A stretch of DNA of 57,549 bases from Clostridia bacterium (GTDB lineage: Bacteria; Bacillota; Clostridia; UBA1212), in contig JAGDAX010000163.1 of NCBI GenBank assembly GCA_017848335.1, positions 1-57,549 on the forward strand, written 5' to 3'. The notes beneath the pieces were generated by a model. That model was not told the DNA's origin. It ran no database searches and worked only from the letters and a program-made list of their open reading frames with translations. Shown here piece by piece: positions 4,806 to 47,940 of this stretch. The first letter of the stretch is position 1; each line of letters begins with the position of its first letter. A program made the position numbers and the translations under genes.

Positions 4806-4912
4806 AATTGCGCCTCCGATAATGTAGTTTGGTTTTGGTAGTGCCCGGTGCCTGAAACAGGCCAGAGGCTACAGGCCAGAGGCCGGAGCGCAGCTGCGCG
4901 GACGCAAAAAGC

Positions 4913-14100: not shown

Positions 14101-14111
14101 GGAGCTTGAAT

Positions 14112-21028: not shown

Positions 21029-24000
21029 ATGAGAAGACACGTTTTTATAATTCTTGCGATCGTACTGTCCGTTGCCACCCTTGCATCGCTTTTGGGCGGC
21101 TGCGTCGGCGAGCCGGCGACACCCGGGGAGACCGACGGACCTTCCGGCCGCGAAATTCCGACACAGGAGCCTATAATTATGAGAGATTTATCAAACGACA
21201 CTGCACTTTCCGACACACTGCTGTATGCCAACAGCGTGGCGGGCAGCATTACCGCGCGCTATGCCAACGCTCAGAGAAACGCCTTTGAGATCATCAACCG
21301 CAACGTCCGCGTGGTGGAGTCCAACGACACCGACGGCAAGCTGGGCATCAAGAGCATCGAGAACCTAAGCGGCGGCGTCTACACGACGGACACCATGAAC
21401 CTTTACGTGGTGGACGGCAGCGGCAAGGTCTGGCGCGACAATTATTCCTCCTCCGTGGGGCGCACCAATACCACACGCCACGGGTACTATTATTGGGAAG
21501 TGTTCCAGCGCGACCAGGAATTCGGCACCCCCGAAGGCGGCAGCAACGTTTTTGCCAAGGAGGTTCCCGTGGGACGGTACGACAACGACTGGTTCGTTTC
21601 GGCCGACTGCGATCTTTCCTACGACAAGGGCAAATCCGTCACGATCACGCTTACCGGAGGGCTGGACCCCAACCTGGCTATTGTCCTTCCTGAGCCCGTG
21701 CCGAAGAGCGAGGCAACGCATATTGCGGTTACGATCAGCTCATCCGATTCGGGCGGCAGGTCGCAGCTTTTCATTTGCGACAGGAAAACCCGGGATTTCA
21801 ACGCCCAGCAGATGATCAACTTTGAGATCACCGCGGACGGCAAGCCGCACACGTACCTTCTGGACATCTCGGGAATGCTCACCGATGACCTTACCGGGAT
21901 CCGCTTTGACACGGGCAAGACGGTGGGCGAGAAGTACACCTTCTCGGACGTGAAGGTCGTCTACCTGGGCAAGTCGGTGGCCGCCAAGAGCGAGCGCACC
22001 CTTGACGTGTATCCCGACAAGCTCCACCAGAGCTTCAGGCTTCTGGCGCGGCCGGGCTACGAGGAGGTCTCCGAGTTCGGCATGATCTGGGAAATGGATC
22101 AGAGCAAGGTCGAGGCCGTCAGGATCCGCGACCTTGACGGCGTGCACGAGGATCTCTCCGTCAACGAGAACACGGTGCAGTACGTAGCCTTCAAGGTGAA
22201 GGACGCGGGCGTCATAGGGATCATTATCCCGGACGATTCGAGCACGCTCAAAACGTCGGTGACGCTGGAGGACGGCAAGTACGTGGTGAAGCAGGTGGCC
22301 GGCGGCAAGCTCGCGCTGAAGGCAGGCGACGACTGCAGGTTCGGGCACAGGATATACACGGACGACACCGGAAGGCTCGAGTCCATCGACAACGTTGCCT
22401 GGGCCGAGCGCACTCCTCTTGCCGCGGAGAGCATTAACGTTAACACCGGCTCCTCGGGCACCAAGGTGCGCGGCTACGACCGCCTCAAGGGCTACTACAG
22501 CCTGACAATGAGCGGCATCAACTTCCCGCAGGCCTTCAGCCCCTCCGGCAACAACAAATACCTTACGTCCAACCTGACCGTCAACGCGGACGGCGCCGAC
22601 AGGACTCTCTATTTCTGCATCAGATCCACGCCCGGCACCCTCGAGTGCGCGGCAATGCTTGACGACAAGGACATGCTGGTCCCGATGCCCATGCAGGTCT
22701 GCAAGAATTTCGACTGCGAGAAGGAGGAGGCCATTTACGATCCGCAGGATATGTCCTTCGGCGACTCGATCTTCCCCATCGTGGCCAAGGCGGGCACCGT
22801 CAGCACGTTCACGGACATTCATCTCTATATGAACTGGGGCATTTTCCACCTCAAGCAGCTCTCGTCGATCCAGTTCTTCGTGGGCTACTACCACCTGTCA
22901 ACGGGCGTCAGCGAGTCCAACTGCATAAGCTTCTACGGCGTGTTCGGCAAGGACGGCCTCCTGCTGCCTGACTTCAGGGGCCACAGCGGCATTCGCTGGA
23001 GCACGGACCCGCAGTTCACCTCCGTCGCCTCCCCCAAGGCCACATCTTACCGCGACAACAGCGGCAAGCTGGTCATGAGCGAGTACCTGGGCTCGAAGAT
23101 CAACAGCAGCGGCCCCATTTACGCGGACCTCGAATACTCCTACCTGTCGGATTGCGGCTCCTTTAAGTACACACTGCGCCACACAGAATTCCCGCAGACG
23201 GACGAGAACAGAACGTATTACACGCTGGATCTCACCTTCCTCAAGGATCTCACGCTGAACGACGTGAAGAACCAGCTGACCATTGTCGAGCAGGACAGCC
23301 GCACGCAGACCTTCAGCGAGCTCAGCTACAGGGACCCCGAAGGCAACAGGCAGCACGCCTACCTCACGGTCACCGACAAGCGCGGCAACACCTACTACAC
23401 GCTGGACGGCGAGCACGGCTGGTACGCATACTACCACAGCAACAGGCCGGTCATTTTCCAGACCGAAACCGAGGACGATCCGATGAACTACGCCGTGATC
23501 GTCAAGAGCACCGACTTCGTCATCGGCGGCAAGCCCGTTGAATGCAATCTCATCCTTCGCGACAGCTTCGCCAACGGCATCAACTATTCCGCGCTTTCCC
23601 TTGATTTAGGCAAAACCACCTTCAAGAAGGGCGACACGATCCGCATGGAATTCCTGATGCTGCCCTGGGCAAGCCGCGACCTCACCTCGGACGCCAACAT
23701 CCCCATAGTCTTTGAGGACTCCGTCGAGAAGCCGCTCACCGTCAAGTCCGTTGCCACGGGCACGATAATGGAAGAGCCCTACCTCGCGAGAATCCAGGCC
23801 TCCGACAACAAGGCGGAATTTACGGTCACCGGCGGACGCAACAGGAACGCGGTCAGAGTCGACGGCTTCGACGTCCTCTGCAGGCCGGTCATCGAGGAGC
23901 TTTCGGCGGACGGCACCTGGGTGCCCTACGTGACCAACGTCAAGGAGTACGACGGCTACGGGGTCTACCTCAACCGCGACGGCTCCTACGGCTACGCGTT

Positions 24001-24061
24001 CATTTACGAGGCGGCCACGCCGGATCAGGAGCGCACGTTCAGGATCTCAGTGCAGAGGTGA
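21029..24061 (+). CDS. Large (1010 aa) lipoprotein of unknown function with a putative carbohydrate-binding beta-sandwich domain
   Basis: Lipobox LLGGC after a hydrophobic leader, GGAG RBS and host-like codon usage. Contains the segment FEITADGKPHTYLLDIS...GIRFD. Confidence 0.75.
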   Translation: MRRHVFIILAIVLSVATLASLLGGCVGEPATPGETDGPSGREIPTQEPIIMRDLSNDTALSDTLLYANSVAGSITARYANAQRNAFEIINRNVRVVESNDTDGKLGIKSIENLSGGVYTTDTMNLYVVDGSGKVWRDNYSSSVGRTNTTRHGYYYWEVFQRDQEFGTPEGGSNVFAKEVPVGRYDNDWFVSADCDLSYDKGKSVTITLTGGLDPNLAIVLPEPVPKSEATHIAVTISSSDSGGRSQLFICDRKTRDFNAQQMINFEITADGKPHTYLLDISGMLTDDLTGIRFDTGKTVGEKYTFSDVKVVYLGKSVAAKSERTLDVYPDKLHQSFRLLARPGYEEVSEFGMIWEMDQSKVEAVRIRDLDGVHEDLSVNENTVQYVAFKVKDAGVIGIIIPDDSSTLKTSVTLEDGKYVVKQVAGGKLALKAGDDCRFGHRIYTDDTGRLESIDNVAWAERTPLAAESINVNTGSSGTKVRGYDRLKGYYSLTMSGINFPQAFSPSGNNKYLTSNLTVNADGADRTLYFCIRSTPGTLECAAMLDDKDMLVPMPMQVCKNFDCEKEEAIYDPQDMSFGDSIFPIVAKAGTVSTFTDIHLYMNWGIFHLKQLSSIQFFVGYYHLSTGVSESNCISFYGVFGKDGLLLPDFRGHSGIRWSTDPQFTSVASPKATSYRDNSGKLVMSEYLGSKINSSGPIYADLEYSYLSDCGSFKYTLRHTEFPQTDENRTYYTLDLTFLKDLTLNDVKNQLTIVEQDSRTQTFSELSYRDPEGNRQHAYLTVTDKRGNTYYTLDGEHGWYAYYHSNRPVIFQTETEDDPMNYAVIVKSTDFVIGGKPVECNLILRDSFANGINYSALSLDLGKTTFKKGDTIRMEFLMLPWASRDLTSDANIPIVFEDSVEKPLTVKSVATGTIMEEPYLARIQASDNKAEFTVTGGRNRNAVRVDGFDVLCRPVIEELSADGTWVPYVTNVKEYDGYGVYLNRDGSYGYAFIYEAATPDQERTFRISVQR

Positions 24062-24466: not shown

Positions 24467-24527
24467 AAAAAAAGAGGAAATTCGCGGCAGGCATCTCAAC
24501 AGTGCCGCGAATTTCCTCGTTTTTTTT
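24467..24527. terminator. Bidirectional Rho-independent terminator between convergent genes
   Basis: A-run, GAGGAAATTCGCGGCA...TGCCGCGAATTTCCTC stem, T-run. Confidence 0.8.
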
Positions 24528-24634: not shown

Positions 24635-27600
24635 TCAGCCGCCTTCGCCCTTGCCTGCATCACCTTCATCGACTCCCGGCGCGGTCATTGCGTCACCGGG
24701 CTTCAGCTTCCTTCTCAGCATCAGCAGCACCGCGCCGCCTGCCAGAAGCGACGGGACGGCCACGATCAGGAGCACCGAGACCGGTGAAGCCCCGGGGCCG
24801 GTATATTTGACAACTTCCACGTCAATGGTCCTCCACGAGGGCACGACCTCGGGGGCGCCGTCGTTATTGAGATCTATCCGGTGGGAGTATGCGCCGATGA
24901 CGGTCTTGCCGGGCGACATTCCGATGACGGAGCCGTTGAAGATCTCCACGCAGCTGCCTGTTTCCGGCAGCGTGTAGCAGTCGATCGGTATGCTCTCAAT
25001 GCCGTTGGCGGTGAAGCATTTCAGGCTTTCCTTTTTGAGGGCTTCATTGACGGACAGCTTCAGTTCCACTTCCTCGAGATCGAGCACGGCGGGAACCACG
25101 GTGAGCTCGCCGGGGTAAAATTCGATAACGTAGCAGTCTGTCACGTCGCGCCCGTTTTCGTTCACGACCCGGATGTTGCGGAAGTGGTTCGGCGACGTAC
25201 CGGCGTAAAGCTGTGCGCCTGCTATGGTGTATTCCAGCTTGTGGCCATCGAGAAGCCTGCCGTACAGGAAAATGAGCGCGTCGTTGGTGAGGTATTCGCC
25301 GTCAAAGGGCTTGGATTTGCTGCCGGAGGCAAGGAGCACCTTTACCAGAGACTTGCCGTTTTCGGCCTCGATGATCTCGGGCTCGTCGGAAACGCCGGCC
25401 TCGCGAAGCATCCACTGAGCGGGCGGAGAGTCCATTATTCTCAGGTGCTCGAAAACGCGCACGGTCACCTCGCGGCTGACAATAAGCTCGGGGCGGCCGT
25501 CGGCGGACGGCGTATCCGGTGCGCCGTTGAACGGATCAGGCGTCACGACGGAGCTGTTCGGGTAGTAGCGGGCGTAGCCTTTCATGTAATATTCCGCGTC
25601 GGGGCTCAAGCCCATTTCGTACAGGAAGGCTTCACGGTCAACGCCAAGGTCGTCGGAGTATTCCATGGTCAGGCGTCCGGAGGCCGTCGCGGTCACCGTG
25701 CCGTCGGGATTCGCGCGCATTATTCCGTAGGGGTCGTTAAAATTGAAGCTCATTTCGGCGTTCTCCCAGATTGCGCCCTGAGGAAGCTCGTAATCGAACT
25801 CCTGCGGCAGCGTCTGGCCTACGTAAATCTCCGCCGGCTCAAGGTCGATGCGCAAGGGATTTACGGTGAGCTCAGCCGGATACACGAAAATCTCGTACTC
25901 GTCCGTGATGTCCTTGCCGGTACTGTCGATAATTCTCAGATACTCAGGCGCTGCAAGCACCGAGCCCACGCGGGTTATGGACTTTGAGCGCGCCTCTATG
26001 CGTACGCCGGGGTCGAGCATTATATTGCCCATGACCATCACCTCGTCGGAGTAGAGCGGCTCGCCGTCGAAAGTCTTCTCCTTGCCCTGAAATTGCACCG
26101 CCAGCACGTTGTATTTGAATATCTTGTCGAGATCGGGAAGCACCTCCAGATTCTCCGGGATCGCGCCGGACTGAATGGACGGCGTCACCTCCACGGGAAC
26201 CCATCCCACGCCGTGAAGGTAAATCTCGACCCATGCGTGAGCGTTGATGCCGGAGTATTCGTTCTCCCTGCCGGGTTCGGCGTTCACCAGGAAGCCGCCC
26301 ACGTACCTCGCGGGTATACCGATTGTCCGGTAAGCCATCGTGGCCGCGGAAGCGAAGTGCGCACAAATGCCCGACTTGCTCTCGGTAAGGAAATACATTA
26401 TCGGGTCGGCATCCGCCGGAACCTCCTTGAAATTGGTCTCGTATCTGGCCGACGAAAGAATGAACTTCTGCACCGCGGTTATCTGATCCCTCGCGACAAG
26501 AACGCCCGCGTCCGAAAGGAGCTCGGTCATCCTTTGGCGTATATCCCCGGGCACCGTCAGATAGAACTCCCGGACGACCGCGTTGTAGATGCCGAAATCC
26601 ACCTCCCCGGCGGGCTTCACAGAGGTCATTGTCTGAAGGGGAACGCCCATTATCGTGTTGAAGCTGACCCGGCTTCCTTGGGTATCATAACCCTCTATCG
26701 CGTGGTCCGTCCATGATCGGCCCGCCAGCCCTTCCAGCCAGCCCGAGGACGTGTAGTATGGCACAGGCGTCAGCCCGTCCTCAAGAAGGTCATTCACAGT
26801 CACCTCGTTCATGTCGCTCAAACCGTTTTCCAGGAGCGTCAGATACGTCAGGTCGAGCGGGTGCTCGCCATACGGAGTTCTCTCCGCTATGCGGTCGCTG
26901 ACGGAGAAAGGCTCCTGCCAGCTTTTTCCGTTGTAGTCGCCGAAGCTGGTCAGCCGCAGGTAGATCTGTCCGGCGCGTTCCGTGGTAACGGTGCCAAGAA
27001 CAGTTTTGCTGCGTTCTGCGGGAAGTCGGGGAACCAGCCCCGAAGGAGCGGAAACAGGCATGCCGCCGTTTACTCCGCTGCCGCCGCTGCCGCCTATGCC
27101 TTCCCGCATCTGCCTCTCCAGCTCCTCGGCATTCACCTCAATGCGAAGCGTCAGGTCATAGTCCGCCGTCCTGTACCTGTCTGCCCAATCATAGTTTACG
27201 ATATCCACTGTTGCGTGCTCGGAGATCTTCTCTGTGGGCACGCTGAAAGGCACCGATTCCGCCTCTGCGTAGTCGCCTTCAGCCAGATTGTCGGTGATGA
27301 AGCTCGACGGCAGGTAAACCCTTGATTCCATATCCGCAAAACCGTACACCACCGTAACGGAAGCGGGTCTCCTGTTCACGACGATTTTCCCGGGAATATA
27401 TTCAATATCGTAGGAGTCAGTGACGTTTCCGTATTTTTCCGAGCTGATTTCGACACGGAAGTCGTTATCGTACGTACCCGCGTGAAGAACCTCCACCGCC
27501 ACCACGGTCGTTATGGCGTCTCCCGGAGCAAGGCTTCCCGAGGTGACGCCTGCTATGTCACTGAACCGGTGGTATCGGGCGTCGTACGTTATCGGATCCG

Positions 27601-28783
27601 GCGAGAGGCTTTCTATGCTGACCGGCCTCTTTTTTACGGTGACCTTGCCGAAATTCCACACAAATGCATAATAGTCCGTGGGGTATCCGCCTGGCTCCAG
27701 AATGTCGACCCGCACGCGGTTCTGATGTTCGCCGGCCTTCACCACAGGGGCCCATGCGGAGACCTCGAGCGTGTCCCCGGCAAGAACCTTCCCGGCCGTC
27801 ACCTCGCAGCTGTCGCAATAATACGGCTCCCCGTCGTATATCTTCTCGTGATCCGGCGTGGTGATCTCCAGCCTGATCTTCGTCACGGTGTAAAGTCCGG
27901 GCTCTCTTTTCACGACGTAATTGCCGGTGACGTCGCTCCCGTCCTCCGACGTTATCGCGAATGTAAAATCGTTTCGGTAGCTTCCCGGCTGTACGGCGTT
28001 TACCGGCTTCCAGGATATGCTGATCGTATCATTGTATGCCAGACCGTCGCCGCCCACCTGATATTCCCGCGGCGTTGAAAGAGACTTCCTGTCATATTCC
28101 TTCTCCGCGGAATTGGTCGTCACCGTAATGTTCCGCTGCGAGATCCTGATCGTTCCGTCCGTGAAGATCCAGTCGTAATAGTCGGAGACGTCCCCGCCCT
28201 CGGCGTTTTTCACCGTCAAGGACAGTATTCTGAAGTCCGAGCTGCCTATATTTCTGTCATATTCAGCCCGATAGTCCGTGACCCTGTCGCCCGGCGCCAG
28301 ATCCAGCGTCTCAAAAAGCTTCGCGAGGTCAGGCTTCTCGCCGTAGACCGCTTCGACCACCCCGGGATCCACGCTGACCTGACGCTTTGTGATCAAGAAG
28401 GAAACCTCCTGCGTCCGCACAATACGCAGCAGATTCTCCGTGCGTGCTTCCATGTTGTATTCCCCCGGCGGAAGCATGGCCATATCGGGCCCGCCGTCGA
28501 TCTGCTCCCCAGGCATCTCCCGGTAAGCGGAATAGACCACCCGCGCAAAGAGCGCCCTCGCTCCCGGCGATTTGGGGGTTCCGTAAACACTGTCACTGAG
28601 AGTCATGTTTTGAAGGAAAATCCCCGTCAGGACCATGAGCGTCCCGGCAAGCGCAAACAGAGCAGCCACACCGAACACAATTCCCACCCGGTGCTTTTTG
28701 ACTGTCTTTAAAAAGGCTATGCGCCGCTCTTCGCGTTTTACAACTTTTGACTTGTATTCGTCGTACATGGTTTTTTTCCTCAT
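24635..28783 (-). CDS. Membrane-anchored transglutaminase-like (TgpA-type) protein with MBG-like repeats
   Basis: Core GICAHFASA...GIPARYVGGF...AHAWVEIY...GWVPVEVTP (Cys-His-Glu). Repeated 'K.YDG.P' and 'DVT..Y...G.LTV' units. N- and C-terminal TM helices. Confidence 0.85.
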   Translation of the reverse strand: MRKKTMYDEYKSKVVKREERRIAFLKTVKKHRVGIVFGVAALFALAGTLMVLTGIFLQNMTLSDSVYGTPKSPGARALFARVVYSAYREMPGEQIDGGPDMAMLPPGEYNMEARTENLLRIVRTQEVSFLITKRQVSVDPGVVEAVYGEKPDLAKLFETLDLAPGDRVTDYRAEYDRNIGSSDFRILSLTVKNAEGGDVSDYYDWIFTDGTIRISQRNITVTTNSAEKEYDRKSLSTPREYQVGGDGLAYNDTISISWKPVNAVQPGSYRNDFTFAITSEDGSDVTGNYVVKREPGLYTVTKIRLEITTPDHEKIYDGEPYYCDSCEVTAGKVLAGDTLEVSAWAPVVKAGEHQNRVRVDILEPGGYPTDYYAFVWNFGKVTVKKRPVSIESLSPDPITYDARYHRFSDIAGVTSGSLAPGDAITTVVAVEVLHAGTYDNDFRVEISSEKYGNVTDSYDIEYIPGKIVVNRRPASVTVVYGFADMESRVYLPSSFITDNLAEGDYAEAESVPFSVPTEKISEHATVDIVNYDWADRYRTADYDLTLRIEVNAEELERQMREGIGGSGGSGVNGGMPVSAPSGLVPRLPAERSKTVLGTVTTERAGQIYLRLTSFGDYNGKSWQEPFSVSDRIAERTPYGEHPLDLTYLTLLENGLSDMNEVTVNDLLEDGLTPVPYYTSSGWLEGLAGRSWTDHAIEGYDTQGSRVSFNTIMGVPLQTMTSVKPAGEVDFGIYNAVVREFYLTVPGDIRQRMTELLSDAGVLVARDQITAVQKFILSSARYETNFKEVPADADPIMYFLTESKSGICAHFASAATMAYRTIGIPARYVGGFLVNAEPGRENEYSGINAHAWVEIYLHGVGWVPVEVTPSIQSGAIPENLEVLPDLDKIFKYNVLAVQFQGKEKTFDGEPLYSDEVMVMGNIMLDPGVRIEARSKSITRVGSVLAAPEYLRIIDSTGKDITDEYEIFVYPAELTVNPLRIDLEPAEIYVGQTLPQEFDYELPQGAIWENAEMSFNFNDPYGIMRANPDGTVTATASGRLTMEYSDDLGVDREAFLYEMGLSPDAEYYMKGYARYYPNSSVVTPDPFNGAPDTPSADGRPELIVSREVTVRVFEHLRIMDSPPAQWMLREAGVSDEPEIIEAENGKSLVKVLLASGSKSKPFDGEYLTNDALIFLYGRLLDGHKLEYTIAGAQLYAGTSPNHFRNIRVVNENGRDVTDCYVIEFYPGELTVVPAVLDLEEVELKLSVNEALKKESLKCFTANGIESIPIDCYTLPETGSCVEIFNGSVIGMSPGKTVIGAYSHRIDLNNDGAPEVVPSWRTIDVEVVKYTGPGASPVSVLLIVAVPSLLAGGAVLLMLRRKLKPGDAMTAPGVDEGDAGKGEGG

Positions 28784-28886
28784 TGGTTATGCAGGTGCTC
28801 CCGGCTCAAGCGGCGGGGCGCCCCCTGATCATTCGTGACTCAACTGCGTCTCTGAGTCCGGGGATCGTCCCCGGCTTGTCCGCAGC

Positions 28887-29501
28887 TCACCCTTGGGGCC
28901 ACGTCGGGCCCTTCAGCATAGTCATCGGCACCGTGAAGGCCGCCCTGGCTCCGCCGGCGTCCTGCCACTCAACGTAGCTCATAATGCCCTGCAGCTGACC
29001 TTCGCTCCCGTCCCTGCTTATCGGGACTGTGAACTCAAATGTCTTGTCGCTCCCCGGGTCCATCGTCACGCCCTCCGCTGCGGTGAACTGACCGATACAC
29101 GCCCCGTTGACGTCATAAATCGCGCACTCGATCCGCTCCACGCCGGCAACACCCACCGAGTTATTGTAAAGGATCAACGTCGCGACGTATTCGCCGCGTT
29201 CGGGATCATCCGCCAAAACGAGGCGCTTAATAATGAGCCTGCCCTCGGTGCCTTCGTTGAAATCCCGGAAATATACCGGCTCCTGTTTAAACTCAGGCGC
29301 CTCAAAAACCTGCTGCGGTACGCCGCTCCTGTCAATGAACCGGTCCGCCCCGAAGGCCTGTTTGAAAAAGAACACCGCCAATATCAGCGCCAAAGCCGCG
29401 GCAATTCCGGCCACCGGCATGATCAGCGTGCGCATGCGCGCCTTCTCGGAGGCGGCGTCCAAAGCGGATATTCTGCGGCTGCTGTCATCGTAATCCTTCA
29501 T
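28887..29501 (-). CDS. Single-pass membrane protein with an Ig-like (FxLYD-like) extracytoplasmic domain
   Basis: TM LIMPVAGIAAALALILAVFFF. The segment LYNNS...IECAIYDVNGACIG...MDPGSDKTFEF resembles FxLYD domains. Confidence 0.6.
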   Translation of the reverse strand: MKDYDDSSRRISALDAASEKARMRTLIMPVAGIAAALALILAVFFFKQAFGADRFIDRSGVPQQVFEAPEFKQEPVYFRDFNEGTEGRLIIKRLVLADDPERGEYVATLILYNNSVGVAGVERIECAIYDVNGACIGQFTAAEGVTMDPGSDKTFEFTVPISRDGSEGQLQGIMSYVEWQDAGGARAAFTVPMTMLKGPTWPQG

Positions 29502-29507
29502 CGGAAA

Positions 29508-30977
29508 TCACACTCCCTCCGTAAATCTCAGGAGAAACTCTTCGCAGTCCGGCAGCGCGCGGCGGCCGAAAATCGCGGTCAACTGCCTTGCGAGACCCGG
29601 CGCCTCCCTGCGCGTCAGTACCGGATTCATGCCCTCAATTTTGCGGAGGATCTTGTGGCAGAGAACCATATCCGCCGCTTCATTCTCGGTGCCTCCGCAT
29701 GCCTTGAAAACGGGCACGAAGCGCTCAAGCTGCTTCATGGCGCGGTTGCCGACGGTTATCCCCAGCCGTTCCTGCAAATACCGGTCAAGCTGAACGAAGG
29801 CCTCGCGAAGCTTCGCGGAAAGAGGCTCCGCCGCGACAGCCCTGTCGAACATCGCGTGAAGCTCCTCCGCCTTGACGTCGGCACAGGCTCCGGGGGCGGC
29901 ATCGAAGGGCTTGCACCTCGAATTCAGGTCGATAACGAAGGCGCGGTCGTAGACCTTGTCGGATATGACAAGGGTGGACTCGTCATTGTTGGCGGTGCCT
30001 GCGAACCAGACGTTGTCGGGCAGCGAAAGCTTGCCCTCCTCCAAAAGCTCCGGGTCGCCGGGCAGCACGTCCGCGGCCACGCTTATCCTGCGCATGGACT
30101 TGTCGGGAATCTCGAGAATCGACAGAAATTCCGCAAAATAGTACTCGACCCTCGCGATGTTCATCTCGTCAAGAACAACGGTGTATATGCGGTCGCTGCG
30201 GTTTGCCTCGTACAGCTTGCAGAGGAGCTCCGTCTCGGAATAGTTGGCCGTGAATTCGTTGTAGTACCCGAGAAGGTCCGTGCGGTCCCTCCAGGAGGGC
30301 TGCACAGGCGTCACCACCGCGGGATTTCCCACGTATTTCCCGAAGGCGTAAGCCAGCGAGGTCTTGCCTGTGCCCGATATGCCCTGCATTATGGTCAGCC
30401 TGGCGGCGGCCATTGCCGCGATATACGTGCGTATGACGCGCGGCTCGTAATAAAGGCCCAGCGTGCCTGCGGCGTATTCGCGGAAGCCGTCGGCGAACTC
30501 CCTGAGGCCGGCCGGCCTGAAGACGTACCCGGCCGGCGCTGCGCCGGAGGGGCTGGCAGCACCCGGGTTGTCTGAAGCCTTCGGAACCCCGGAAACGCCC
30601 GGAGCGTCTGAAACGCCGTAATCTCCGGAAGCAGCCCCGTTGTTCTTACTTCTTAATTCATTGTCAAGAGCGGAAAGCCGCGGAAATCTCGGCTTCGAGG
30701 TGCGCCTGCGCTCTCCTATACGAACGCGGCGCAGCCTTACTGCGGAAACCGCCAGCAACACCGTCAGCACCACCAGCGCGATATCCAGCAGAACAAGCCC
30801 TGTCAAAATGGCCCGGGCGGTATATTCCGTCGTGCCCAGCAGGTAATTCCAGCCGTACAGCGGGGTGTATCCCCAATAAGTCTTGTCCCAAAGCGCCATT
30901 AAGAACAGCGCCGCCAAAAGCGTCACGAAGCTTACCGCGACAGACAGAAGGACTGTGGAAATGATGACTTTTTTCAT
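29508..30977 (-). CDS. McrB-like AAA+ NTPase with two N-terminal TM helices (paralog 2)
   Basis: GISGTGKTS, VQPSW.DRTDLLGY, VLDEMNIARVEYYFAEFLSILE, GTANNDEST and SDKVYDRA motifs, with hydrophobic N-terminal segments. Confidence 0.85.
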   Translation of the reverse strand: MKKVIISTVLLSVAVSFVTLLAALFLMALWDKTYWGYTPLYGWNYLLGTTEYTARAILTGLVLLDIALVVLTVLLAVSAVRLRRVRIGERRRTSKPRFPRLSALDNELRSKNNGAASGDYGVSDAPGVSGVPKASDNPGAASPSGAAPAGYVFRPAGLREFADGFREYAAGTLGLYYEPRVIRTYIAAMAAARLTIMQGISGTGKTSLAYAFGKYVGNPAVVTPVQPSWRDRTDLLGYYNEFTANYSETELLCKLYEANRSDRIYTVVLDEMNIARVEYYFAEFLSILEIPDKSMRRISVAADVLPGDPELLEEGKLSLPDNVWFAGTANNDESTLVISDKVYDRAFVIDLNSRCKPFDAAPGACADVKAEELHAMFDRAVAAEPLSAKLREAFVQLDRYLQERLGITVGNRAMKQLERFVPVFKACGGTENEAADMVLCHKILRKIEGMNPVLTRREAPGLARQLTAIFGRRALPDCEEFLLRFTEGV

Positions 30978-32737
30978 TTCTTTTCACCCTCCTCTCCGCG
31001 GATCCCGTTATGGTTTTCGGTTTCTGAGGCTTGCGAGAGCCCGGGGGATTGCAGCGTTTCCTGAACCTCGCGCGAATCAACCGGCTTTTCCGCCTCCTTG
31101 GAAACAGCAGGATCTTCCGTTTCCCTCGAATCCTCGGGATCTCCCGCTTGAGGCGCACCGGACGGACGGCCCTTCCTGAACGAAGCCTTCACGTCGCGGC
31201 GGATCTTGCCCTTGCAGAGCTTCCACTGGCGCTTAAAATACCTGTCGAAGGCTTCCTTCTCGCCCTCAAGCCCGATGAATTCCTCGCGCTCCATCTCCGG
31301 ATCGATATCCGCCGTGGGGTCGCTGCAAAGACCGCGGGCCCTGAGCCTTGCCTTGAGAAGATTGACGGTCTCCGTCCAGCGTGCCACGGCCTCCGCCATG
31401 TCAGCCTCGGCCTTCCTCGTTATTTTCTCTATTTTTTCGTTGTTTTCCTGCGACAATGATATCAGCGCCGCTCGCATTCTGTCGCCGGAATCCCGTCTTA
31501 TTTCCTCGGCTTCGCGGCGCAGCTTGGCTGCTTCCGCTTCCAGCCTCGCTTTTTCGAAGACAGCGTCCCCGGCCTTCCGCTGAATCCCGGCGCGATCCTC
31601 GACCACGGTCTCAAGCTCCGCGGTGACCTCGCGAAGCTTCTCTATGAGAACGTCCGCGAATTCGCCGTCGCTGCCGCACTTGTCGCGAAGAGCCGCCATA
31701 TCGTCAAGAAATTTCCTGTGTTCACGGGCAGACGCGCTCTGAAGGTACGTTTTCTCCGTCTCGTAAAGCTTTTCCTTGTCGGCCCATCCGTCAAAAGCAC
31801 CCTGGTACGCCGCATAAAGCTGGAGGCCCGACAGCGCCTTCAGAGCCTTGCCGGTGATCCCGCCGATCTCGCTGAGAGAGCGCTCCTCGTCCGTTATCTC
31901 ATAGCCGGAGTCCCTGTAGGAGTCCACAAAGGCGTACATCTCGAAAACGGCGGAAAAGCTGGTGTTGCTCTTGATGACGTTGGTCCTCACCACGGGCGGC
32001 GTCAGCTTCGGGGCATCGGCCACGCGGATCATAAGAGGCGTCGCCAGCATTGAGTCCACCGTATTCATGATCTCGCCGATGCGCTCAAGAATGCCTTCGT
32101 TGTCCGGGTTGTTTGCGCCCGCCCTCCGGACGGTCCGCTCAAGAAGCTCCAGCCGCACTCCGCCCTGTCTGCCGTTGTTCTCGGCATATCCGTCGTAAAC
32201 CAGCCGGATCCTGCTCGCGGCGGCGGCTTCGCGGATGGAATTGTAGCGAATTCCTACGAACACCTTCAGCAGGGACAGCACGAAGTACAGGAAGCGGTTC
32301 TCGTAAACCGCGTATTCCTCGTCATTCTCGGTGACGTAGATCTCCTCGGGCCTGACGCGCCCGTCGTCGCCCACGTCCTTGATGGCGTTGCTGTGCCTGG
32401 CCAGATAGCCGACGGATTCCCGCGAGAAACGCTTCGCCCGGTCGATGCGGACCACGTCGCCCTCCTTCTTGATAAGGCTGCGGGCCTGGTCGATGGCCTT
32501 CTGAACGTGCGGAAGACCCTCCTCGATGCGCTCCACCCAGGTGATGTCCACCTTGCAGACCTGACGCGAGGCCTCGATCTCCTGAATGCGCGCATTGCCC
32601 GAGAACGCAAGCTCAATTCCCTCGCCTGCGTCAAGGCTTTCGGCCGCGCGAATAACGTCCGCGACGATCTTATAGAACGCCGCGTCCCTGCTGAAGCCCG
32701 AGCGGATAAGGTCAAACGAATCGTAGCTCTCTTTCAT
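30974..32737 (-). CDS. DUF2357 (McrC N-terminal-like) protein with a C-terminal coiled coil
   Basis: WVERIEEGLPHV, RESVGYLARHS and YAVYENRF motifs. The C-terminal third is a heptad-rich E/K/R/A helix. No PD-(D/E)XK motif recognised. Confidence 0.75.
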   Translation of the reverse strand: MKESYDSFDLIRSGFSRDAAFYKIVADVIRAAESLDAGEGIELAFSGNARIQEIEASRQVCKVDITWVERIEEGLPHVQKAIDQARSLIKKEGDVVRIDRAKRFSRESVGYLARHSNAIKDVGDDGRVRPEEIYVTENDEEYAVYENRFLYFVLSLLKVFVGIRYNSIREAAAASRIRLVYDGYAENNGRQGGVRLELLERTVRRAGANNPDNEGILERIGEIMNTVDSMLATPLMIRVADAPKLTPPVVRTNVIKSNTSFSAVFEMYAFVDSYRDSGYEITDEERSLSEIGGITGKALKALSGLQLYAAYQGAFDGWADKEKLYETEKTYLQSASAREHRKFLDDMAALRDKCGSDGEFADVLIEKLREVTAELETVVEDRAGIQRKAGDAVFEKARLEAEAAKLRREAEEIRRDSGDRMRAALISLSQENNEKIEKITRKAEADMAEAVARWTETVNLLKARLRARGLCSDPTADIDPEMEREEFIGLEGEKEAFDRYFKRQWKLCKGKIRRDVKASFRKGRPSGAPQAGDPEDSRETEDPAVSKEAEKPVDSREVQETLQSPGLSQASETENHNGIRGEEGEKK

Positions 32738-32753
32738 AACGCATCAGCCCCCG

Positions 32754-34025
32754 TCAGTTACCGGAATATTTCGCAAGGTATGCCAGACACGCCGGCATCG
32801 CATTCTCCCCGAAAATTTCATTGATCTTTTTAACAAGGGAGTCCGCCCTCGCACTCACAATCACAGGGTTCAGATTGTCAAGCTTTCGAAGCACCTTTTT
32901 GCAAAGAATGATATCCACTGCCTCTTCCTCGGTGCCGCCGGCCTCCACGAAGACAGGCACGAACCCCTCCGTCTGCCGGAGAATTCTGTTGCCGAAGGTG
33001 ATCCCGAAACGGTCCACGAGCACCGCGTCCAGAAGACCGATCTTAGCACGCATATTGTCGGACATCCTGCCATGCCTCAAGGCCTCCTCGAACATTCTTG
33101 AAAGATCCTTGCAGGTCACGTGACGGGTGCCCGGGTTTACCGCCCCGAAGGGCTCGGCGCGGCTCGAAAGCTCCAGCACCATGGCCCGGTCGTACACCTT
33201 GTCGGAAATCGCCAGCGTCGAATCGTCGTTGTTGGCGGTGCCCACAAACCAGACGTTCTCAGGGATCAGCAGCTTGCCGTTCTTCATGAGCTTCGGGTCG
33301 CTCTTGCGAGTAGCCGAAACCACCTCGATCAGCCTCGCCTCCGGATCCGGTATCTCAAGCAGCGACAGAAAGTCCGCAAAATAGTATTCGATGCGCGCGA
33401 TATTCATCTCGTCAAGGATCACCACGAAGACGTCCTTGGACAGGTTCGCCTCGTAAAGCATATACAGCAGCTCGGTCTCCGTGAATCTGTCCGTGAATTC
33501 ATTGTTGTACCCGAGAATATCACTCTTGTCCTTCCAGGAGGGCTGCACCGGCACGACGGCTGCGTCGCGGCAGATGAACTTGCCGAAGGCGTAGGGCAGC
33601 GAAGTCTTGCCCGTTCCCGACACGCCCTGAAGCACCATCAGCTTCGTGACCGCCAACGACGACACAAACGCCCTTATAACTCCGGGCGCATAATAGAGGC
33701 CCAGTTCCGCCGCGGCATAGTCCCTGAAGTCCGAGCAGAACGCACTGAGCGTCCCTTTGTAATCCTCCTCGGGCCCCTTGCGCAGCTCGCCGGCACGCCT
33801 GTCAAGCTCGCCAAGCCTCGCGAACCGCGGCTTTTCCTTTTTGCGCTTCTTTTCGTCCTCCCTGGCCTTCACGTCCTGCGCGTTCCTGATGATCAGGAAT
33901 ACCATCACCGCGACAATGGAAAGCATAAGAACGCCCGCCAATATCATCAGCGCAGACCCCGACAGCAAGTCCGGGAACAAGCGTAATCCTTTATTCTCTG
34001 TGGCTAAAAGTAAAATTCGATTCAT
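32754..34025 (-). CDS. McrB-like AAA+ NTPase with an N-terminal TM helix (paralog 1)
   Basis: GVSGTGKTS, VQPSWKDKSDILGY, ILDEMNIARIEYYFADFLSLLE, GTANNDDST and SDKVYDRA motifs. TM ALMILAGVLMLSIVAVMVFLII is followed by a basic stretch. Confidence 0.85.
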   Translation of the reverse strand: MNRILLLATENKGLRLFPDLLSGSALMILAGVLMLSIVAVMVFLIIRNAQDVKAREDEKKRKKEKPRFARLGELDRRAGELRKGPEEDYKGTLSAFCSDFRDYAAAELGLYYAPGVIRAFVSSLAVTKLMVLQGVSGTGKTSLPYAFGKFICRDAAVVPVQPSWKDKSDILGYNNEFTDRFTETELLYMLYEANLSKDVFVVILDEMNIARIEYYFADFLSLLEIPDPEARLIEVVSATRKSDPKLMKNGKLLIPENVWFVGTANNDDSTLAISDKVYDRAMVLELSSRAEPFGAVNPGTRHVTCKDLSRMFEEALRHGRMSDNMRAKIGLLDAVLVDRFGITFGNRILRQTEGFVPVFVEAGGTEEEAVDIILCKKVLRKLDNLNPVIVSARADSLVKKINEIFGENAMPACLAYLAKYSGN

Positions 34026-34287
34026 AATTCATTCTGTTCTTCGCTGTAAGATATCTCTGTGCAAATATTGAAACGGGCGGCAGGGGCATTTGCTGTATGA
34101 GGCGGCAGTCCCGGCGCACGTTTCTTGTCCGACTCCATTCTATAACATGGGAGCGCGTCTTTTCAATAGTCTGCTTCATCGGGCGCCGCGCTTTAAGCAG
34201 CTTTTAAGCCTTCGGCTTTGCGCGGCGCGGGCGCAGGGTTTTTGCATTTCCTCAAGAGCCGCTGTGCGCGCGACCGCGCGCACAGCG

Positions 34288-34328
34288 AAACACCGCCCCT
34301 CCGAAAATTCAGAAGGGGCGGTGTTTTT
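34288..34328. terminator. Rho-independent terminator hairpin
   Basis: AAACACCGCCCCT...AGGGGCGGTGTTT. It separates the upstream lipoprotein gene from the McrB-like cluster. Confidence 0.7.
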
Positions 34329-34512: not shown

Positions 34513-35760
34513 TCAGTATGCCACGTACTCGTGGAGGGAGAGGCCCTTCGCGGTCCAATCGCTGCCGGGAATTTCGGACTGATTGGTGAAGCCCTCGGAG
34601 GTGTTCAGAACCACGAACATACCGAAGTACAGGTTCTCCCTGGCGAGGTTGAAATCGGCCGCATTCTCGACGTCGGTGACCTTAAAGAAGTCCGCGGGAA
34701 TCTTGGCCTCCACACCGAAGCCGCCCTCGATCGCGACAGGCTTTGCCTCGATGAGCGCAGTAATATCAGCCGCTTTGCCGTCGAGCTCGTCCTTGAGCGC
34801 AGTCTTGTGGTTGTTCTGGATGACCTTTACGGTTTCGCCCATCTCGAAGGTGATGAACAGCGCCTCGGTTTCGTCGATTCTCGCGCCGGGGTTGAAGCTC
34901 AGCTGCAGCTGGTCGCCCGCAACAGCACCTTTGCCCTCGATGGCAACGTAAACGGCGTCCTCAGCCTTGGAGATATGGTAGGTGATGACTCTGTCGCCAA
35001 GCTCGGAGCCGGTCCAGGTCTTGGCGGTCGCGCTGTCGATAACGTAGGTGGCGGCATATTCGCCTTCCTTGATTTCGCCGTCAACAGCCTTCTCCACTGC
35101 GTCAGGTCCGTCGTAGTAGATCACGTAGCCCAGCGCATCGGGATTGATGTAGTAAATGTCGCCAAGCTCGGTCTTCACGATAACCTTGAGCTCGTGGCCC
35201 TTGCCGGTAAGGCCCTTCACGGGCACGTCAACTCTGAATCTCTGAGCAAACTCGCCGCCTGCGCCCTTGACAGCCGCCTCGGTGGTGGTGAAGCCGCCCG
35301 TGAATACAGGAGCTCTGTCGTCGATCTGGTAGCCGATGTCGACCATTTCCTCCTCGTTGAAGCCGGCCCAGCCTCTCATACCGACCGAACCGATGTTCCC
35401 TGCGGTGCCGTCGACGGTGTCGTCATTTTCGGACTTCCAGCCTGCAACGTCTCCGTCTGTGACAGTGGTGTTGTCAAAGAACAGTGTGTCGAAGGAAAGG
35501 CTCCTGACGTCGCCATCTTCCCAGTCAAGAATCGTAACCGCATAGGGGTCCGTGAATGGCACCGGCGTGGGGTCGGGCTCCTTGGTGGGCTCCTCTGTGA
35601 CAACCTCCGTGGGCTCCTCTGTGGGCTCTCCGACCGGAGCCTCAGTTGCCTGAGAAGGCGCGTCCGTGGGCGCCGGCTTTTTCGTGTCCGGCCCAGTGCA
35701 GGCCGCGAAAAGTGCCGCAACAATGAGAATGCTAAGTAAAACAGTCAATATTTTCTTCAT
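34513..35760 (-). CDS. Lipoprotein with a P/T/E-rich linker, a GW..DIGYQ domain and a CBM9/DOMON-like C-terminal domain
   Basis: MKKILTVLLSILIVAALFAAC lipobox (ATG 35760, GGAGG RBS) and PTEEPTE linker. VDGEIKEGEY...VYVAIE...GDQLQL...GFGVEAKIP resembles CBM9-like sugar-binding folds. Confidence 0.7.
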   Translation of the reverse strand: MKKILTVLLSILIVAALFAACTGPDTKKPAPTDAPSQATEAPVGEPTEEPTEVVTEEPTKEPDPTPVPFTDPYAVTILDWEDGDVRSLSFDTLFFDNTTVTDGDVAGWKSENDDTVDGTAGNIGSVGMRGWAGFNEEEMVDIGYQIDDRAPVFTGGFTTTEAAVKGAGGEFAQRFRVDVPVKGLTGKGHELKVIVKTELGDIYYINPDALGYVIYYDGPDAVEKAVDGEIKEGEYAATYVIDSATAKTWTGSELGDRVITYHISKAEDAVYVAIEGKGAVAGDQLQLSFNPGARIDETEALFITFEMGETVKVIQNNHKTALKDELDGKAADITALIEAKPVAIEGGFGVEAKIPADFFKVTDVENAADFNLARENLYFGMFVVLNTSEGFTNQSEIPGSDWTAKGLSLHEYVAY

Positions 35761-36110
35761 AACAAAATACCTCCAATTCGTTATGTATGTCTGCATTTTA
35801 ATATATCCGCGCGATTTTCGCAACCCCTTCGGTGCCTTTAAGTGCCGTCCGCGCGTTCCGCGCGAGTTATGGAACGCGGGTTATGAGATGTGAGTTCTGT
35901 GACTTGAGTCATGGCACGGGAGTTTTGAGTGACCGGTGCCGCTTCGCGACGACAAGGCCAGCGGCCAGAGGACGCTTCGCGGATGCGAGTGCCGAGTGCC
36001 CTGACCGCCCGTCTCCTCAGGCCGCCAAACAGCAGGAATCCTCCCCTGCGGCAAAACAAACCGCAAAGGAGGATCTGTGCTTTGAATCTGTTTCTTTAAA
36101 TCTTTTGCCG

Positions 36111-40223: not shown

Positions 40224-41213
40224 TCAGACGCCCTTCTCCAGCGCCCTGTACGCCTTGGTGACAAAAGCCGCGTAGCCCTCCCGCACGTCCGCGGGCGCCT
40301 CAATGCTGACCAGCCCCCCGAAGCCCACGATCCACGCGTAAAGCACGCTGTTCACGGCCACCTCCACGTCCGCCCGGAAGCGGTCCTCGCCGCATTGACG
40401 GGTCTTGACGGTCTCGCCGAAGCGGTCTATTATCGCGTCCATCACGGAATTGTCGCACAGCAGCTCCACGTTCCTGCGGTCGGAGGTGAACATGTGGTAC
40501 ATGGTGTTGAGGTAGCGGTCCAGGTCGAAGCCCCGGGGCATGGGCAGTGCGTCCTCGGGCAGCAGCTTCGGCGTCGCAGCAATACGATCCACCCGATAAT
40601 TCGTGACCGTGTCGTGCTTGTGGCACCAGCCCACCACGTAGTAGAAGTCGCCGTTCCAGACAAGCTGCCAGGGGCTGAAGCGGTACCAGTAGCCGTCGTG
40701 GCGCGGCTTGCGCTCTTTGCGGGCGTTGTACGCGAAGTACTGAAAGACGATCTGCCGCCGCTCGGTAATGGCCGTATTGATCGCGTCGACGATGCTCATG
40801 ACCTTGCGGTTGGTGCCCTTGATGCGCCTCTCCACGGAGACGTTGCGGATCATGCGCGAGGACGCGTGCTGCCCGGCAAGGGAGCTTATCTTCTCGATAA
40901 TTTTCCGGCTCTGGCTCTTGGAAATGAACCGGGCGGAGGCCACCGCGTCGATCATCATGCGCAGCTCGGAGTCGCTGAAGAAGCGGTCCAGCACGTTGTA
41001 TTTGTTCTGGGTGGACTTGGTGAGCTGGATGTCCATGCCGAGGCTTTGCAGCAGCTCGACGTCCGGGCCGATGGTGGTCCGGTGGGTGGGCATGCCGAAT
41101 TCCTCCTCAAGGATCTTCGTCAGCTGCGCCGTGGTGAGGCTGTGCTCCGGATCGGTGCGCTCGTACAGGATTTTCGCCAGGATGAAGGGGCGAAGCTTTG
41201 CGTCGTTGTCCAT
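40224..41213 (-). CDS. WYL-domain transcriptional regulator (wHTH-WYL-WCX)
   Basis: ILYERTDPEHSLT, DAVASARFIS, FSPWQLVWNGDFYYVV, YRVDRI and AIIDRFG motifs. Confidence 0.9.
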   Translation of the reverse strand: MDNDAKLRPFILAKILYERTDPEHSLTTAQLTKILEEEFGMPTHRTTIGPDVELLQSLGMDIQLTKSTQNKYNVLDRFFSDSELRMMIDAVASARFISKSQSRKIIEKISSLAGQHASSRMIRNVSVERRIKGTNRKVMSIVDAINTAITERRQIVFQYFAYNARKERKPRHDGYWYRFSPWQLVWNGDFYYVVGWCHKHDTVTNYRVDRIAATPKLLPEDALPMPRGFDLDRYLNTMYHMFTSDRRNVELLCDNSVMDAIIDRFGETVKTRQCGEDRFRADVEVAVNSVLYAWIVGFGGLVSIEAPADVREGYAAFVTKAYRALEKGV

Positions 41214-47884: not shown

Positions 47885-47940
47885 AAGCAAAAAGATATAA
47901 TACCAAGAACAAAAACGTAACCATTAATGAAAACAATCAT

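Follow-up and report, generated by a model that had tools for sequence, protein, structure and literature searches.

In a 57,549-nucleotide stretch of DNA from a Clostridia bacterium of the lineage UBA1212 (assembly GCA_017848335.1, contig JAGDAX010000163.1, positions 1 to 57,549 of the forward strand; hereafter the window), five genes follow one another on the minus strand. They encode two predicted McrB-type GTPases, B1 (P0001, 423 residues, 32754-34025) and B2 (P0003, 489 residues, 29508-30977), which flank a protein with an McrC-like N-terminal domain, C (P0002, 587 residues, 30974-32737), and these are followed by a small membrane-anchored protein, I (P0004, 204 residues, 28887-29501), and a large surface protein with a predicted transglutaminase, T (P0005, 1382 residues, 24635-28783). 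An earlier reading made from the letters alone (the sequence-only reading) had described this arrangement, and the five open reading frames (ORFs) are indeed co-oriented, with gaps of 16, -4, 6 and 103 nucleotides (nt). McrBC is the textbook GTP-driven restriction motor. The system described here may instead be a nuclease-free, membrane-anchored McrBC-type GTPase module that assembles or controls giant surface proteins and does not act on DNA, a reading to which we give about an even chance.

Both NTPases retain the motifs listed in the sequence-only reading. Walker A reads GVSGTGKT in B1 (starting at residue 134) and GISGTGKT in B2, Walker B is LDEMNIA in both, the sensor motif is GTANNDDST in B1 and GTANNDEST in B2, and DKVYDRA is present in both. 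The NCBIfam McrB model matches the two proteins with expectation values (E) of 2.1e-5 and 7.1e-3, which is far below the equivalog cut-off, so that B1 and B2 are best described as family-level relatives of McrB and not as orthologues. Sequence matches of B1 among solved structures are McrB chains only (6hz4_A, E 9.2e-5), and a profile of 65 B-family sequences retrieved from the PDB McrB (E 1.1e-4) and one chance-level match, the unrelated GTP-binding protein 1yr6_A (E 0.58). Pfam AAA_5 is matched by 55 of the 65 family members. Kinship with MoxR was considered and rejected, as no MoxR or RavA sequence match was found in PDB or NCBIfam; the assignment to McrB and not MoxR, as originally proposed, is thus retained. 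The best library match of B1 and B2 is to the PADLOC profile PDC-M26A (E 4.5e-45 and 9.4e-48), confined to the AAA+ cores and partial, with the best stretch at about positions 312-432 of the 724-position profile.

At the place of the DNA-reading domain of McrB both proteins carry predicted membrane helices, in line with the sequence-only reading. In a hydropathy scan the hydrophobic windows of B1 overlap, with peaks at residues 16-34 and 28-46, and are read as one helix (about 28-46), and in B2 the segments 9-27 and 62-80 would form a membrane hairpin, with a low-complexity linker preceding the AAA+ domain. Pfam detected no N-terminal DNA-reading domain in B1 or B2, the N-termini consisting of membrane helices and a short linker. 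A basic juxtamembrane stretch of B1 contains an invariant R67-F68, the same R-F motif is found in B2, and in the family alignment it is invariant directly after the last membrane helix across the B proteins. From the positive-inside rule, applied to the basic residues flanking the helices, the AAA+ domains would be cytoplasmic and the bulk of I and T would be outside.

B1 and B2 of the window are 48% identical. In the alignment of 65 B sequences N265 and D267 of the sensor are invariant, and N266 and D268 are about 90% conserved; B1 carries NNDD and B2 carries NNDE. HMMER aligns the NNDD of B1 to the NTAD of the E. coli protein without a gap, so that B1 alone is ambiguous with respect to NxD and NxxD, and the canonical NxxD sensor first read from this gapless alignment was dropped after the family alignment and the NHDE motif of more distant relatives had been considered. 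The invariant N265 and D267, the NNDE of B2 and the NHDE of the relatives point to NxD(D/E) as the constant of the family, which is the signature of the NxD branch of McrB GTPases.

C combines an alpha/beta domain of the McrC-N/DUF2357 type (residues 1-315; 31793-32737, minus strand), recognised by its Pfam family, by structural alignment with VIA-align and by an AlphaFold2 (AF2) model, with a coiled-coil region (residues 318-522; 31172-31786, minus strand) seen in the AF2 model and the family alignment. The motif YENRF, pointed out in the sequence-only reading, is found at residues 145-149. On its own C is sub-threshold for Pfam DUF2357 (E 0.0042); the domain is called at E<=0.01 in 38 of 41 aligned C-family members (best 1.4e-9), and the ESM Atlas neighbours of C are all DUF2357 clusters. 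When the N-domain was compared with 48,161 PDB representatives by VIA-align, the McrC chains 6ut5_G (Z 8.0, 137 residues aligned) and 6hz4_M (Z 6.9, 141 aligned) gave the two longest alignments among the matches listed, at Z values (6.9-8.0) for which the fold alone is not decisive for McrC identity, and RavA appeared only as a generic helical fold. Searches of the PDB with the entire protein were dominated by the coiled coil: Foldseek with the whole model returned nothing at E<=0.001, and the full-length sequence profile retrieved coiled-coil proteins only.

In the AF2 model of C (mean pLDDT 79) the alpha/beta domain extends to about residue 315 and is followed by helices at 318-353, 359-472 (a single helix of 114 residues) and 484-522, and by a disordered acidic tail. 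The coiled coil varies in length across the family and ends in a conserved basic helix (W505, K509). No beta strand is present after residue 288, which leaves no room for a PD-(D/E)xK fold, and no such nuclease was detected in C by Pfam, NCBIfam or PADLOC; the earlier statement that 30974-32737 encodes a DUF2357 protein without a nuclease was thereby upheld. By homology C is an McrC N-domain protein, and it is predicted to activate its McrB-type partner. A profile of the N-domain found 1970 members at E<=0.001 among 1.84 billion representatives at 50% identity (1362 at E<=1e-10 and 979 at E<=1e-30), and the public names of C-family proteins are only 'hypothetical protein' or 'DUF2357 domain-containing protein'.

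The module thus shares with canonical McrBC (E. coli McrB/McrC; 6hz4, 6ut6) an AAA+ GTPase with Walker A/B and sensor motifs and a partner with a DUF2357/McrC N-domain. It departs from McrBC in that membrane helices replace the DNA-reading N-domain, NxD and not NxxD is the family-invariant pattern, the PD-(D/E)xK nuclease is missing, and there are two GTPase paralogues.

The two remaining proteins of the operon are predicted to face outwards. I would have a short cytoplasmic N-terminus, one membrane helix (26-44 by hydropathy) and an extracellular sandwich, which the AF2 model shows as a generic 7-strand Fn3/Ig-like fold with Foldseek matches to TRAP-beta, ApaG and Fn3-like domains of GH3/GH2 enzymes. 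Its description as an Ig-like protein with one membrane helix holds, and the FxLYD family once expected for it was found as a weak match only (E=0.038). A degenerate signal peptidase was considered for I and rejected, as the protein is unrelated to the S26 proteins of the sister loci described below and no signal-peptidase fold was among the Foldseek matches.

T is laid out as a cytoplasmic tail (with Y7 and Y10), a membrane helix at 33-51, repeats at about 100-560 and 890-1240, a TgpA-like module between them (about 590-870) and a C-terminal membrane helix at 1337-1355, the last of which the sequence-only reading had not recorded; both helices were assigned by hydropathy. The transglutaminase proposed for this protein is well supported by the Pfam Transglut_core match at residues 765-865 (E=4.5e-20; 26189-26491, minus strand; Cys807, His849, Glu865), and residues 590-890 match the solved TgpA of P. 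aeruginosa (6g49_A, E 4.1e-11), with a weak Pfam TgpA_N match. In 42 aligned modules the triad is conserved as Cys in 40, His in all, and Glu in 32 or Asp in the other 10, so T carries a TgpA-like Cys-His-Glu core that is predicted to be catalytic. The MBG-like repeats of the sequence-only reading were not called by Pfam in T itself; they do align to homologues in which Pfam recognises YDG/MBG domains. The motif M-x-Y-D-x-Y-x-x-K opens those surface proteins that share the first domain of T and precedes their membrane helix; Y7 and Y10 are invariant in 31 aligned sequences. We infer that this Y-x-x-Y tail and the juxtamembrane R-F of the B proteins are a candidate cytoplasmic contact. A complex prediction with residues 1-32 of T, cytosolic B2 and the C N-domain scored 0.00, was run with no controls and points neither way. 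A related locus encodes a 1759-residue surface protein with five tandem transglutaminase cores by Pfam (L057:11018-16297), two of which have Ser in place of the catalytic Cys.

To see what is constant around these genes, relatives were collected from one genome per species across 185,579 species genomes. The scan gave 599 candidate stretches, of which 538 were confirmed as B2 relatives, and the comparisons below use the best 80 of these stretches (73 loci), all from records labelled Bacillota or related groups. Carriers include rumen and gut Clostridia, Christensenella (Christensenellaceae), Oscillospiraceae, Anaeroplasma, Acholeplasma, Izemoplasma and Haloplasma. All-against-all clustering of the 692 ORFs in the 73 loci yielded only four widely recurring families, namely B (70 loci), C (62), the surface protein (56) and I (16, restricted to the clade of the window).

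With our own ORF calls and BLAST tokens a B-C-B triad was called in 43 loci, 42 of which have at least 1.5 kb of downstream DNA. A T-like ORF lies within the next three ORFs in all 42, with order and strand kept, and the link between motor and surface protein claimed for the window is thus conserved throughout the assessable loci. The downstream protein contains a transglutaminase core in 24 of the 42 and repeats only in 18. The transglutaminase and Ig-like genes accompany the McrB pair in part of the loci (24 of 42 and 16 of 73, respectively): the constant partner, present in 42 of 42, is a YDG/MBG-repeat surface protein with a conserved tail, and the transglutaminase is an optional module. 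By hydropathy B1 has a single membrane helix in 34 loci and two in 8, and B2 carries two helices in 26 loci, three in 16 and four in one locus. An N-terminal membrane helix was seen in each of the 44 complete surface ORFs, 14 of which carry a second one at the C-terminus.

The five genes of the operon appear to form one promoter-terminator unit. A promoter-like site (TTGAAA, 18 nt spacer, TAGAAT; 34137-34166, minus strand) lies about 110 nt upstream of the B1 gene and agrees with the consensus at 10 of 12 positions, a consensus match only. Further upstream, a hairpin with a T-rich tail (about 34288-34320, minus strand) terminates the preceding lipoprotein gene and marks the 5' boundary of the operon, and the T gene is followed by a strong intrinsic terminator with a perfect 16-bp stem and then T7 (24467-24518, minus strand). 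Both structures, which had been given as the operon boundaries at 34288 and 24467, were read directly in the sequence; an automatic scan listed neither, the loop of the 24518-24467 hairpin exceeding its limit. The codon style is host-like, as noted before, with a GC content at third codon positions of 0.73-0.76 in the five genes and 0.73-0.84 in flanking genes, and the overall GC content of the five genes (0.58-0.59) matches that of their neighbours.

Genes for large surface proteins abound in gut Bacillota, and the related loci contain others of this kind (BspA leucine-rich repeat (LRR) proteins); it could be argued that a degenerate McrBC-like module merely happens to lie beside an unlinked adhesin gene. 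Such a coincidence is difficult to reconcile with an order and strand kept in 42 of 42 assessable loci across distant lineages, with gaps of 16, -4, 6 and 103 nt inside a single promoter-terminator unit, and with a family-specific N-terminal tail common to the surface proteins, and we regard it as very improbable.

The flanking genes in the window also have a surface character. Downstream, a 1010-residue lipoprotein-like protein with a signal peptide ending in a Cys lipobox is encoded convergently with T (21029-24061, plus strand), and upstream lies a gene for a lipoprotein-like protein of about 410 residues with a signal peptide of the same kind (34513-35823, minus strand). No Pfam, NCBIfam or PADLOC family was found for either. 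With lipoprotein-like genes on both sides, the operon sits among surface-protein genes. Neighbours of the related loci include rpoA/rplQ (L001) and, in several loci, BspA LRR surface proteins.

Since MoxR and McrB both belong to AAA_5, the system could be a functional analogue of the MoxR-DUF58-TgpA operons, with the AAA+ module as a chaperone that matures or activates the transglutaminase and the repeats as a passive stalk. As far as covered in the relevant parts of PMC6803598, the MoxR-DUF58-transglutaminase gene order is widespread, and the bifidobacterial PFNA cluster has an FN3 adhesin. In these operons, as in that of the window, an NTPase of the AAA_5 clan stands together with an adaptor, a membrane-bound transglutaminase and a surface protein of the Fn3/Ig type. 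The TgpA-like module of T, matching 6g49_A (E=4.1e-11) and weakly TgpA_N, and the conserved triad are in line with this idea. On the other hand, the operon of the window has an McrB-like NTPase, an McrC-N adaptor in place of DUF58, and a transglutaminase with a membrane helix at each end and long Ig-like repeats instead of a polytopic N-terminal region, and no DUF58 or vWA partner was found in the window by Pfam. The transglutaminase is predicted to be extracellular whereas the AAA+ domains would be cytoplasmic, and since 18 of 42 B-C-B loci are without the core, the transglutaminase cannot be an obligate client. A chaperone of this kind is in our view distinctly unlikely.

The two B proteins show an unusual pattern of divergence. 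B1 and B2 from one locus share 83-100% identity over about 370-490 aligned residues in 27 of the 43 B-C-B loci (e.g. L073:9515-14314, L054:9500-14437 and L037:6339-10999), although B proteins of different loci are only about 45-60% identical, and in three loci that were checked a 300-nt reference copy recurs at 96-100% DNA identity about 3.3-3.6 kb away. The near-identity within loci, the divergence between them and the DNA copies indicate that the two direct repeats on either side of C evolve in concert, through gene conversion or successive re-duplications. The loci with near-identical pairs all come from metagenome assemblies, and repeats of this kind are difficult to resolve in such data; the pattern was seen again in many independent assemblies. 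The remaining 16 loci (13 from the clade of the window, and L028, L057 and L066) have pairs that have diverged to 50-61% identity, with 48-57% in the window's clade. Since the helix counts of B1 and B2 differ in most loci and their alignment usually starts a few to about 100 residues into B1, the differences appear to sit mainly at the N-terminal anchors. One may speculate that such a pattern would be apt for a mixed ring whose motor domains are identical and whose anchors are of two types.

Many B-C-B loci (e.g. L039:6093-9503, L046:2303-5845, L071:6060-9575, L073:5475-9518 and L057:3104-6328) are preceded by a gene for a protein of 1074-1347 residues, absent from the window. In this protein Pfam recognises Glyco_hydro_3_C and Fn3-like domains, a membrane hairpin lies in the middle of the chain, and the C-terminal domain is distantly McrB-like. 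A Walker A motif was found in 0 of 29 such upstream ORFs examined, and the protein therefore looks like a third, inactive B paralogue.

The branch to which the B proteins belong is already named in print. In the passages of Bell et al. (eLife 2024; PMC11090510) devoted to it, a major branch of McrB GTPases is defined by NxD, 'usually followed by E or D', and holds the CoCoNuTs and the CoCoPALMs; the latter are given one paragraph, with the full description deferred to a later paper, and their GTPase is said there to be fused to an FtsB-like membrane helix and a coiled-coil segment. Further traits of the CoCoPALMs are coiled coils in the McrB as well as the McrC homologue and an association with proteins of the signal-peptidase family (pilus assembly). 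The window's system resembles CoCoPALM in its NxD(D/E) signature, its N-terminal membrane anchors, its coiled-coil nuclease-less McrC homologue and its association with the cell surface. It differs in that two B genes flank C and in that a signal-peptidase gene is missing. Its partners differ too, being YDG/MBG-repeat proteins that often contain a transglutaminase core; the paper by Bell et al. does not use the word 'transglutaminase'. Pfam found no match to the FtsB/DivIC family at E<=0.1 in the operon proteins, only a short charged stretch follows the membrane helix of B1, and no long coil is evident in the sequences of B1 and B2.

Four sister loci with a single B gene in the order of the window, first encountered as distant C-family matches, agree with that sketch (L079:6612-18999, L080:1-11998, L081:6262-19998 and L082:3911-16295). 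In all four the protein adjoining B has a weak Peptidase_S26 match (E 1.9e-6 to 9.7e-4) with the S-M-x-P-T box kept, and the loci also encode further SipW-like S26 paralogues and several proteins with 'AWF'-type hydrophobic N-terminal signals. BspA LRR proteins are found in L081 and L082, and a giant ORF of more than 2200 codons in L079 and L080. The sister B proteins are 53-62% identical to the B protein of the L053 type and share GTANNDDST, except for GTINNDDST in L082. The single-B sister loci thus fit the published CoCoPALM sketch. A hidden Markov model built from the four S26 proteins had no match in the six-frame ORFs of the window or in any B-C-B locus, and its sole match among the 73 loci was in L041, a single-B locus. 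Next to L079 lies a gene for a GGDEF-EAL protein (3988-6363).

Among non-membrane proteins, the closest relatives of B (43-44% identity in the AAA+ core) carry the NHDE motif, and their operons, on plasmids of Rhodoferax and Deinococcus, run helicase, unknown, McrB-like, DUF2357; a more distant operon of similar make-up (33% identity), in genome G394, has an AAA_11/AAA_12 helicase. As far as the published outline goes, these helicase-linked relatives look like CoCoNuT types II/III. The window's system and CoCoNuTs have in common the NxD GTPase branch and a coiled-coil McrC homologue; unlike CoCoNuTs, the operon of the window has no nucleases, HEPN, helicase or RNA-binding domains, and its GTPases are membrane-anchored and paired with surface proteins. 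In a quick IQ-TREE tree of the C N-domain, supported by SH-aLRT values only, the helicase-linked proteins split off (99), and there are two B-C-B clades, one of 19 rows including the window (100) and one of 27 rows (94), and two single-B groups, the branching order among these four groups not being settled by the tree; three loci (L006, L013 and L017) were mislabelled single-B there by the ORF caller and have both B genes by tblastn.

Taken from these comparisons, the window's system appears to be a distinct architectural variant within or beside CoCoPALM, and it is not filed as a member because the signal-peptidase association was looked for and was absent. The sequence-only reading had put forward a candidate undescribed system, which has to be narrowed: the branch has been named, and what we find in no description is the B-C-B/surface-protein architecture. 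Literature searches gave no account of an McrB/DUF2357/surface-protein/transglutaminase architecture, which the supplementary files of Bell et al. may list, and the relevant hits for 'CoCoPALM' were only the eLife paper and its preprint. The forthcoming CoCoPALM description may already cover the B-C-B architecture.

How could such a module work? In the surface-machine reading that we favour, B1 and B2 would form an AAA+ ring, presumably hexameric as in McrB, held at the inner face of the membrane by the N-terminal helices. The McrC-N domain of C would plug into the ring and switch on GTP hydrolysis, as McrC does for McrB, and the long coiled coil, in the place of the nuclease, would serve as a dimerising or spacing arm. 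The ring would then act on the surface protein encoded directly downstream, for which the Y-x-x-Y cytoplasmic tail and the adjacent membrane helix are a likely handle, and would drive or gate its insertion, assembly, positioning or conformation from inside out. The output in the window would be a TgpA-like enzyme with a Cys-His-Glu triad, a transglutaminase or a protease, displayed outside the cell on a stalk of YDG/MBG-like Ig repeats, with the small Fn3-like protein I as a membrane-anchored accessory. The homologies, the domain architecture, the intact catalytic motifs, the lack of a nuclease and the conserved gene order are direct observations; the composition of the ring, including the heterohexamer that 'services' a surface protein in the sequence-only reading, the coupling, the direction of action and a role in adhesion or surface remodelling in gut bacteria are what these observations suggest.

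We prefer a surface function because no nuclease, HEPN or other cytoplasmic effector was found in the five operon proteins (Pfam, NCBIfam, PADLOC and the AF2 model of C), the GTPases appear membrane-bound, and the constant partner is a surface protein with a family-specific tail. Signal peptidases and fibre-like secreted proteins go with the sister class, the neighbours are housekeeping or surface genes, PADLOC matches in the flanks are few, and C had no match among 50,697 records of a phage collection; these points argue in the same direction. A precedent is PcdA of Staphylococcus aureus, an McrB-family protein co-opted for cell division according to the portions of PMC10602043 that treat it, which indicates that McrB-family proteins of Bacillota can leave restriction for cell-envelope biology. 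As outlined there, PcdA, a single protein of the cytoplasm, contains EVE domains, its Walker motifs are degraded and it has no partner of the McrC type, whereas the window's system keeps both the motifs, intact, and an McrC-N protein.

A looser parallel is LapD-LapG-LapA. There a giant repeat adhesin is the substrate of a transglutaminase-like cysteine protease, and this protease is controlled from across the membrane by a nucleotide-dependent signal in the cytoplasm. The likeness is one of analogy only, namely inside-out control of a giant adhesin: the cytoplasmic parts are not homologous, the window's system has the protease-like domain and the repeats in one polypeptide, and its hosts are Gram-positive or wall-less.

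Several points weigh against a surface machine. The pore of the McrBC ring is filled by McrC, and it is not obvious how the ring could grip a membrane protein. The physical coupling of ring and surface protein is deduced by comparison, the membrane helices come from a Kyte-Doolittle scan and not from a dedicated predictor, and the co-occurrence count derives from the 73 best-scoring loci among 538 confirmed relatives and from crude ORF calls, with loci in which B2 was missed because an antisense ORF was taken (e.g. L006, L013 and L017) excluded from the 43. The ancestry of the module lies in restriction and defence, the nearest non-membrane relatives look like CoCoNuT defence loci, and the best PADLOC match of the B proteins is a defence candidate, PDC-M26A, that is itself untested. 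The distribution is also patchy: 12 of 46 genomes of the window's order and 2 of 401 in a sample of the phylum are positive (the window's own included in both), and within the genus 2 of 7 other genomes are positive, both with the distant sister single-B type. Patchiness of this kind would be expected of accessory adhesins and of accessory defence genes alike.

The alternative that we weigh most seriously, though we consider it unlikely, is that the system evolved from Type IV restriction and protects against phages or plasmids. Here the surface proteins would sense or block phage adsorption, the membrane GTPase would pass the signal on or bring about exclusion or an abortive response, and the extracellular transglutaminase or protease could be an effector. 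It would be consistent with the McrBC ancestry, with B proteins that share the NxD branch with CoCoNuT systems, with their strong partial match to PDC-M26A, with the patchy distribution and with surface components that diverge faster than the motor (T about 30-34% and B 45-60% identical in the nearest loci). However, no nuclease, HEPN or other cytoplasmic effector is found in the five proteins, and no nuclease or HEPN match in the immediate flanks of the operon, whereas nuclease-less McrC homologues of CoCoNuTs always adjoin other nucleases in the account given in the sections on them (PMC11090510). C matches no PADLOC PDC-M26 component; from the description of these models (10.1101/2024.01.29.577857, as far as it deals with them) PDC entries are untested candidates chosen because a homologue is embedded in a known defence system, and a literature search for 'PDC-M26' returned no text. 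Nor do the flanks resemble defence islands, as only 9 of 103 flanking ORFs have a PADLOC match at E<=1e-5, most of them generic AAA+ or DprA-like, no copy is borne by any of the 50,697 phage records, and several loci adjoin housekeeping genes.

A bolder version of the surface machine is that B-C-B is an unrecognised transmembrane mechanochemical machine, in which the GTP-driven ring grips the Y-x-x-Y tail and works on the giant surface protein across the bilayer. The work could be extension, retraction, force-dependent adhesion or surface movement, and selection for a mixed ring, in which identical motor domains bear two kinds of membrane anchor, would then explain why B1 and B2 are nearly identical to each other in most loci. 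Gliding mycoplasmas, with an internal motor and surface legs, offer a loose comparison. We consider this version quite doubtful.

The genome of the window (a 2.4-Mb assembly, 79% complete) has one copy of the system. For the operon no RNA run was listed, and at least half of its DNA words occur in 7 listed runs of bovine-gut or gut metagenomes. These runs belong to 2 studies, and the study that contributes 4 of them (2 flagged as possible sources) is possibly the source of the window. Elsewhere in the window, about 6 kb upstream of the operon, lies a gene for a WYL and WCX regulator (40224-41213, minus strand; Pfam E 1.5e-15 and 2.5e-7, PADLOC WYL E 2.8e-31). Two AAA_14/DUF4143 ATPases (11638-12975 and 14106-15407, plus strand) match the PADLOC candidate PDC-S01 (E 1.5e-182 and 1.8e-112) and lie in a stretch of lower GC content (0.47-0.49 at 12-18 kb as against 0.54-0.60 around it). 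Positions 42001-50000 (plus strand) form an island of low GC content (0.35-0.39, flanks 0.53-0.61) with four tandem genes for proteins of about 600 residues, one of the PF09818 ABC_ATPase/MRB1590 type, two of the ABC exporter type (ABC_membrane and ABC_tran) and one with no family match; this island was probably acquired horizontally.

Few departures of McrBC from DNA work are known, and those discussed in the parts of PMC10602043 concerned are PcdA and, in animals, the CTTNBP2-type proteins. The present family retains intact GTPase motifs and an McrC-type partner, lacks a nuclease and has membrane anchors, and in all 42 loci that could be assessed it has a giant surface protein as its partner. 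It is also large, with about 980 C clusters at 50% identity (E<=1e-30) and 538 confirmed loci. If defence were its true role, it would be an McrBC derivative with an extracellular effector and no nuclease, which would be equally unusual. A mechanochemical role, if true, would mean an energised adhesin for wall-less or thin-walled gut Bacillota (Anaeroplasma, Acholeplasma, Haloplasma, Christensenella and rumen Clostridia). If the coupling of ring and surface protein is true, the family would offer a concrete system for probing the named but barely described CoCoPALM branch, would give a function to abundant 'hypothetical' or 'DUF2357' proteins of rumen and gut bacteria, and would add a novel route by which bacteria lacking an outer membrane put the energy of cytoplasmic nucleotides to use at the cell surface.

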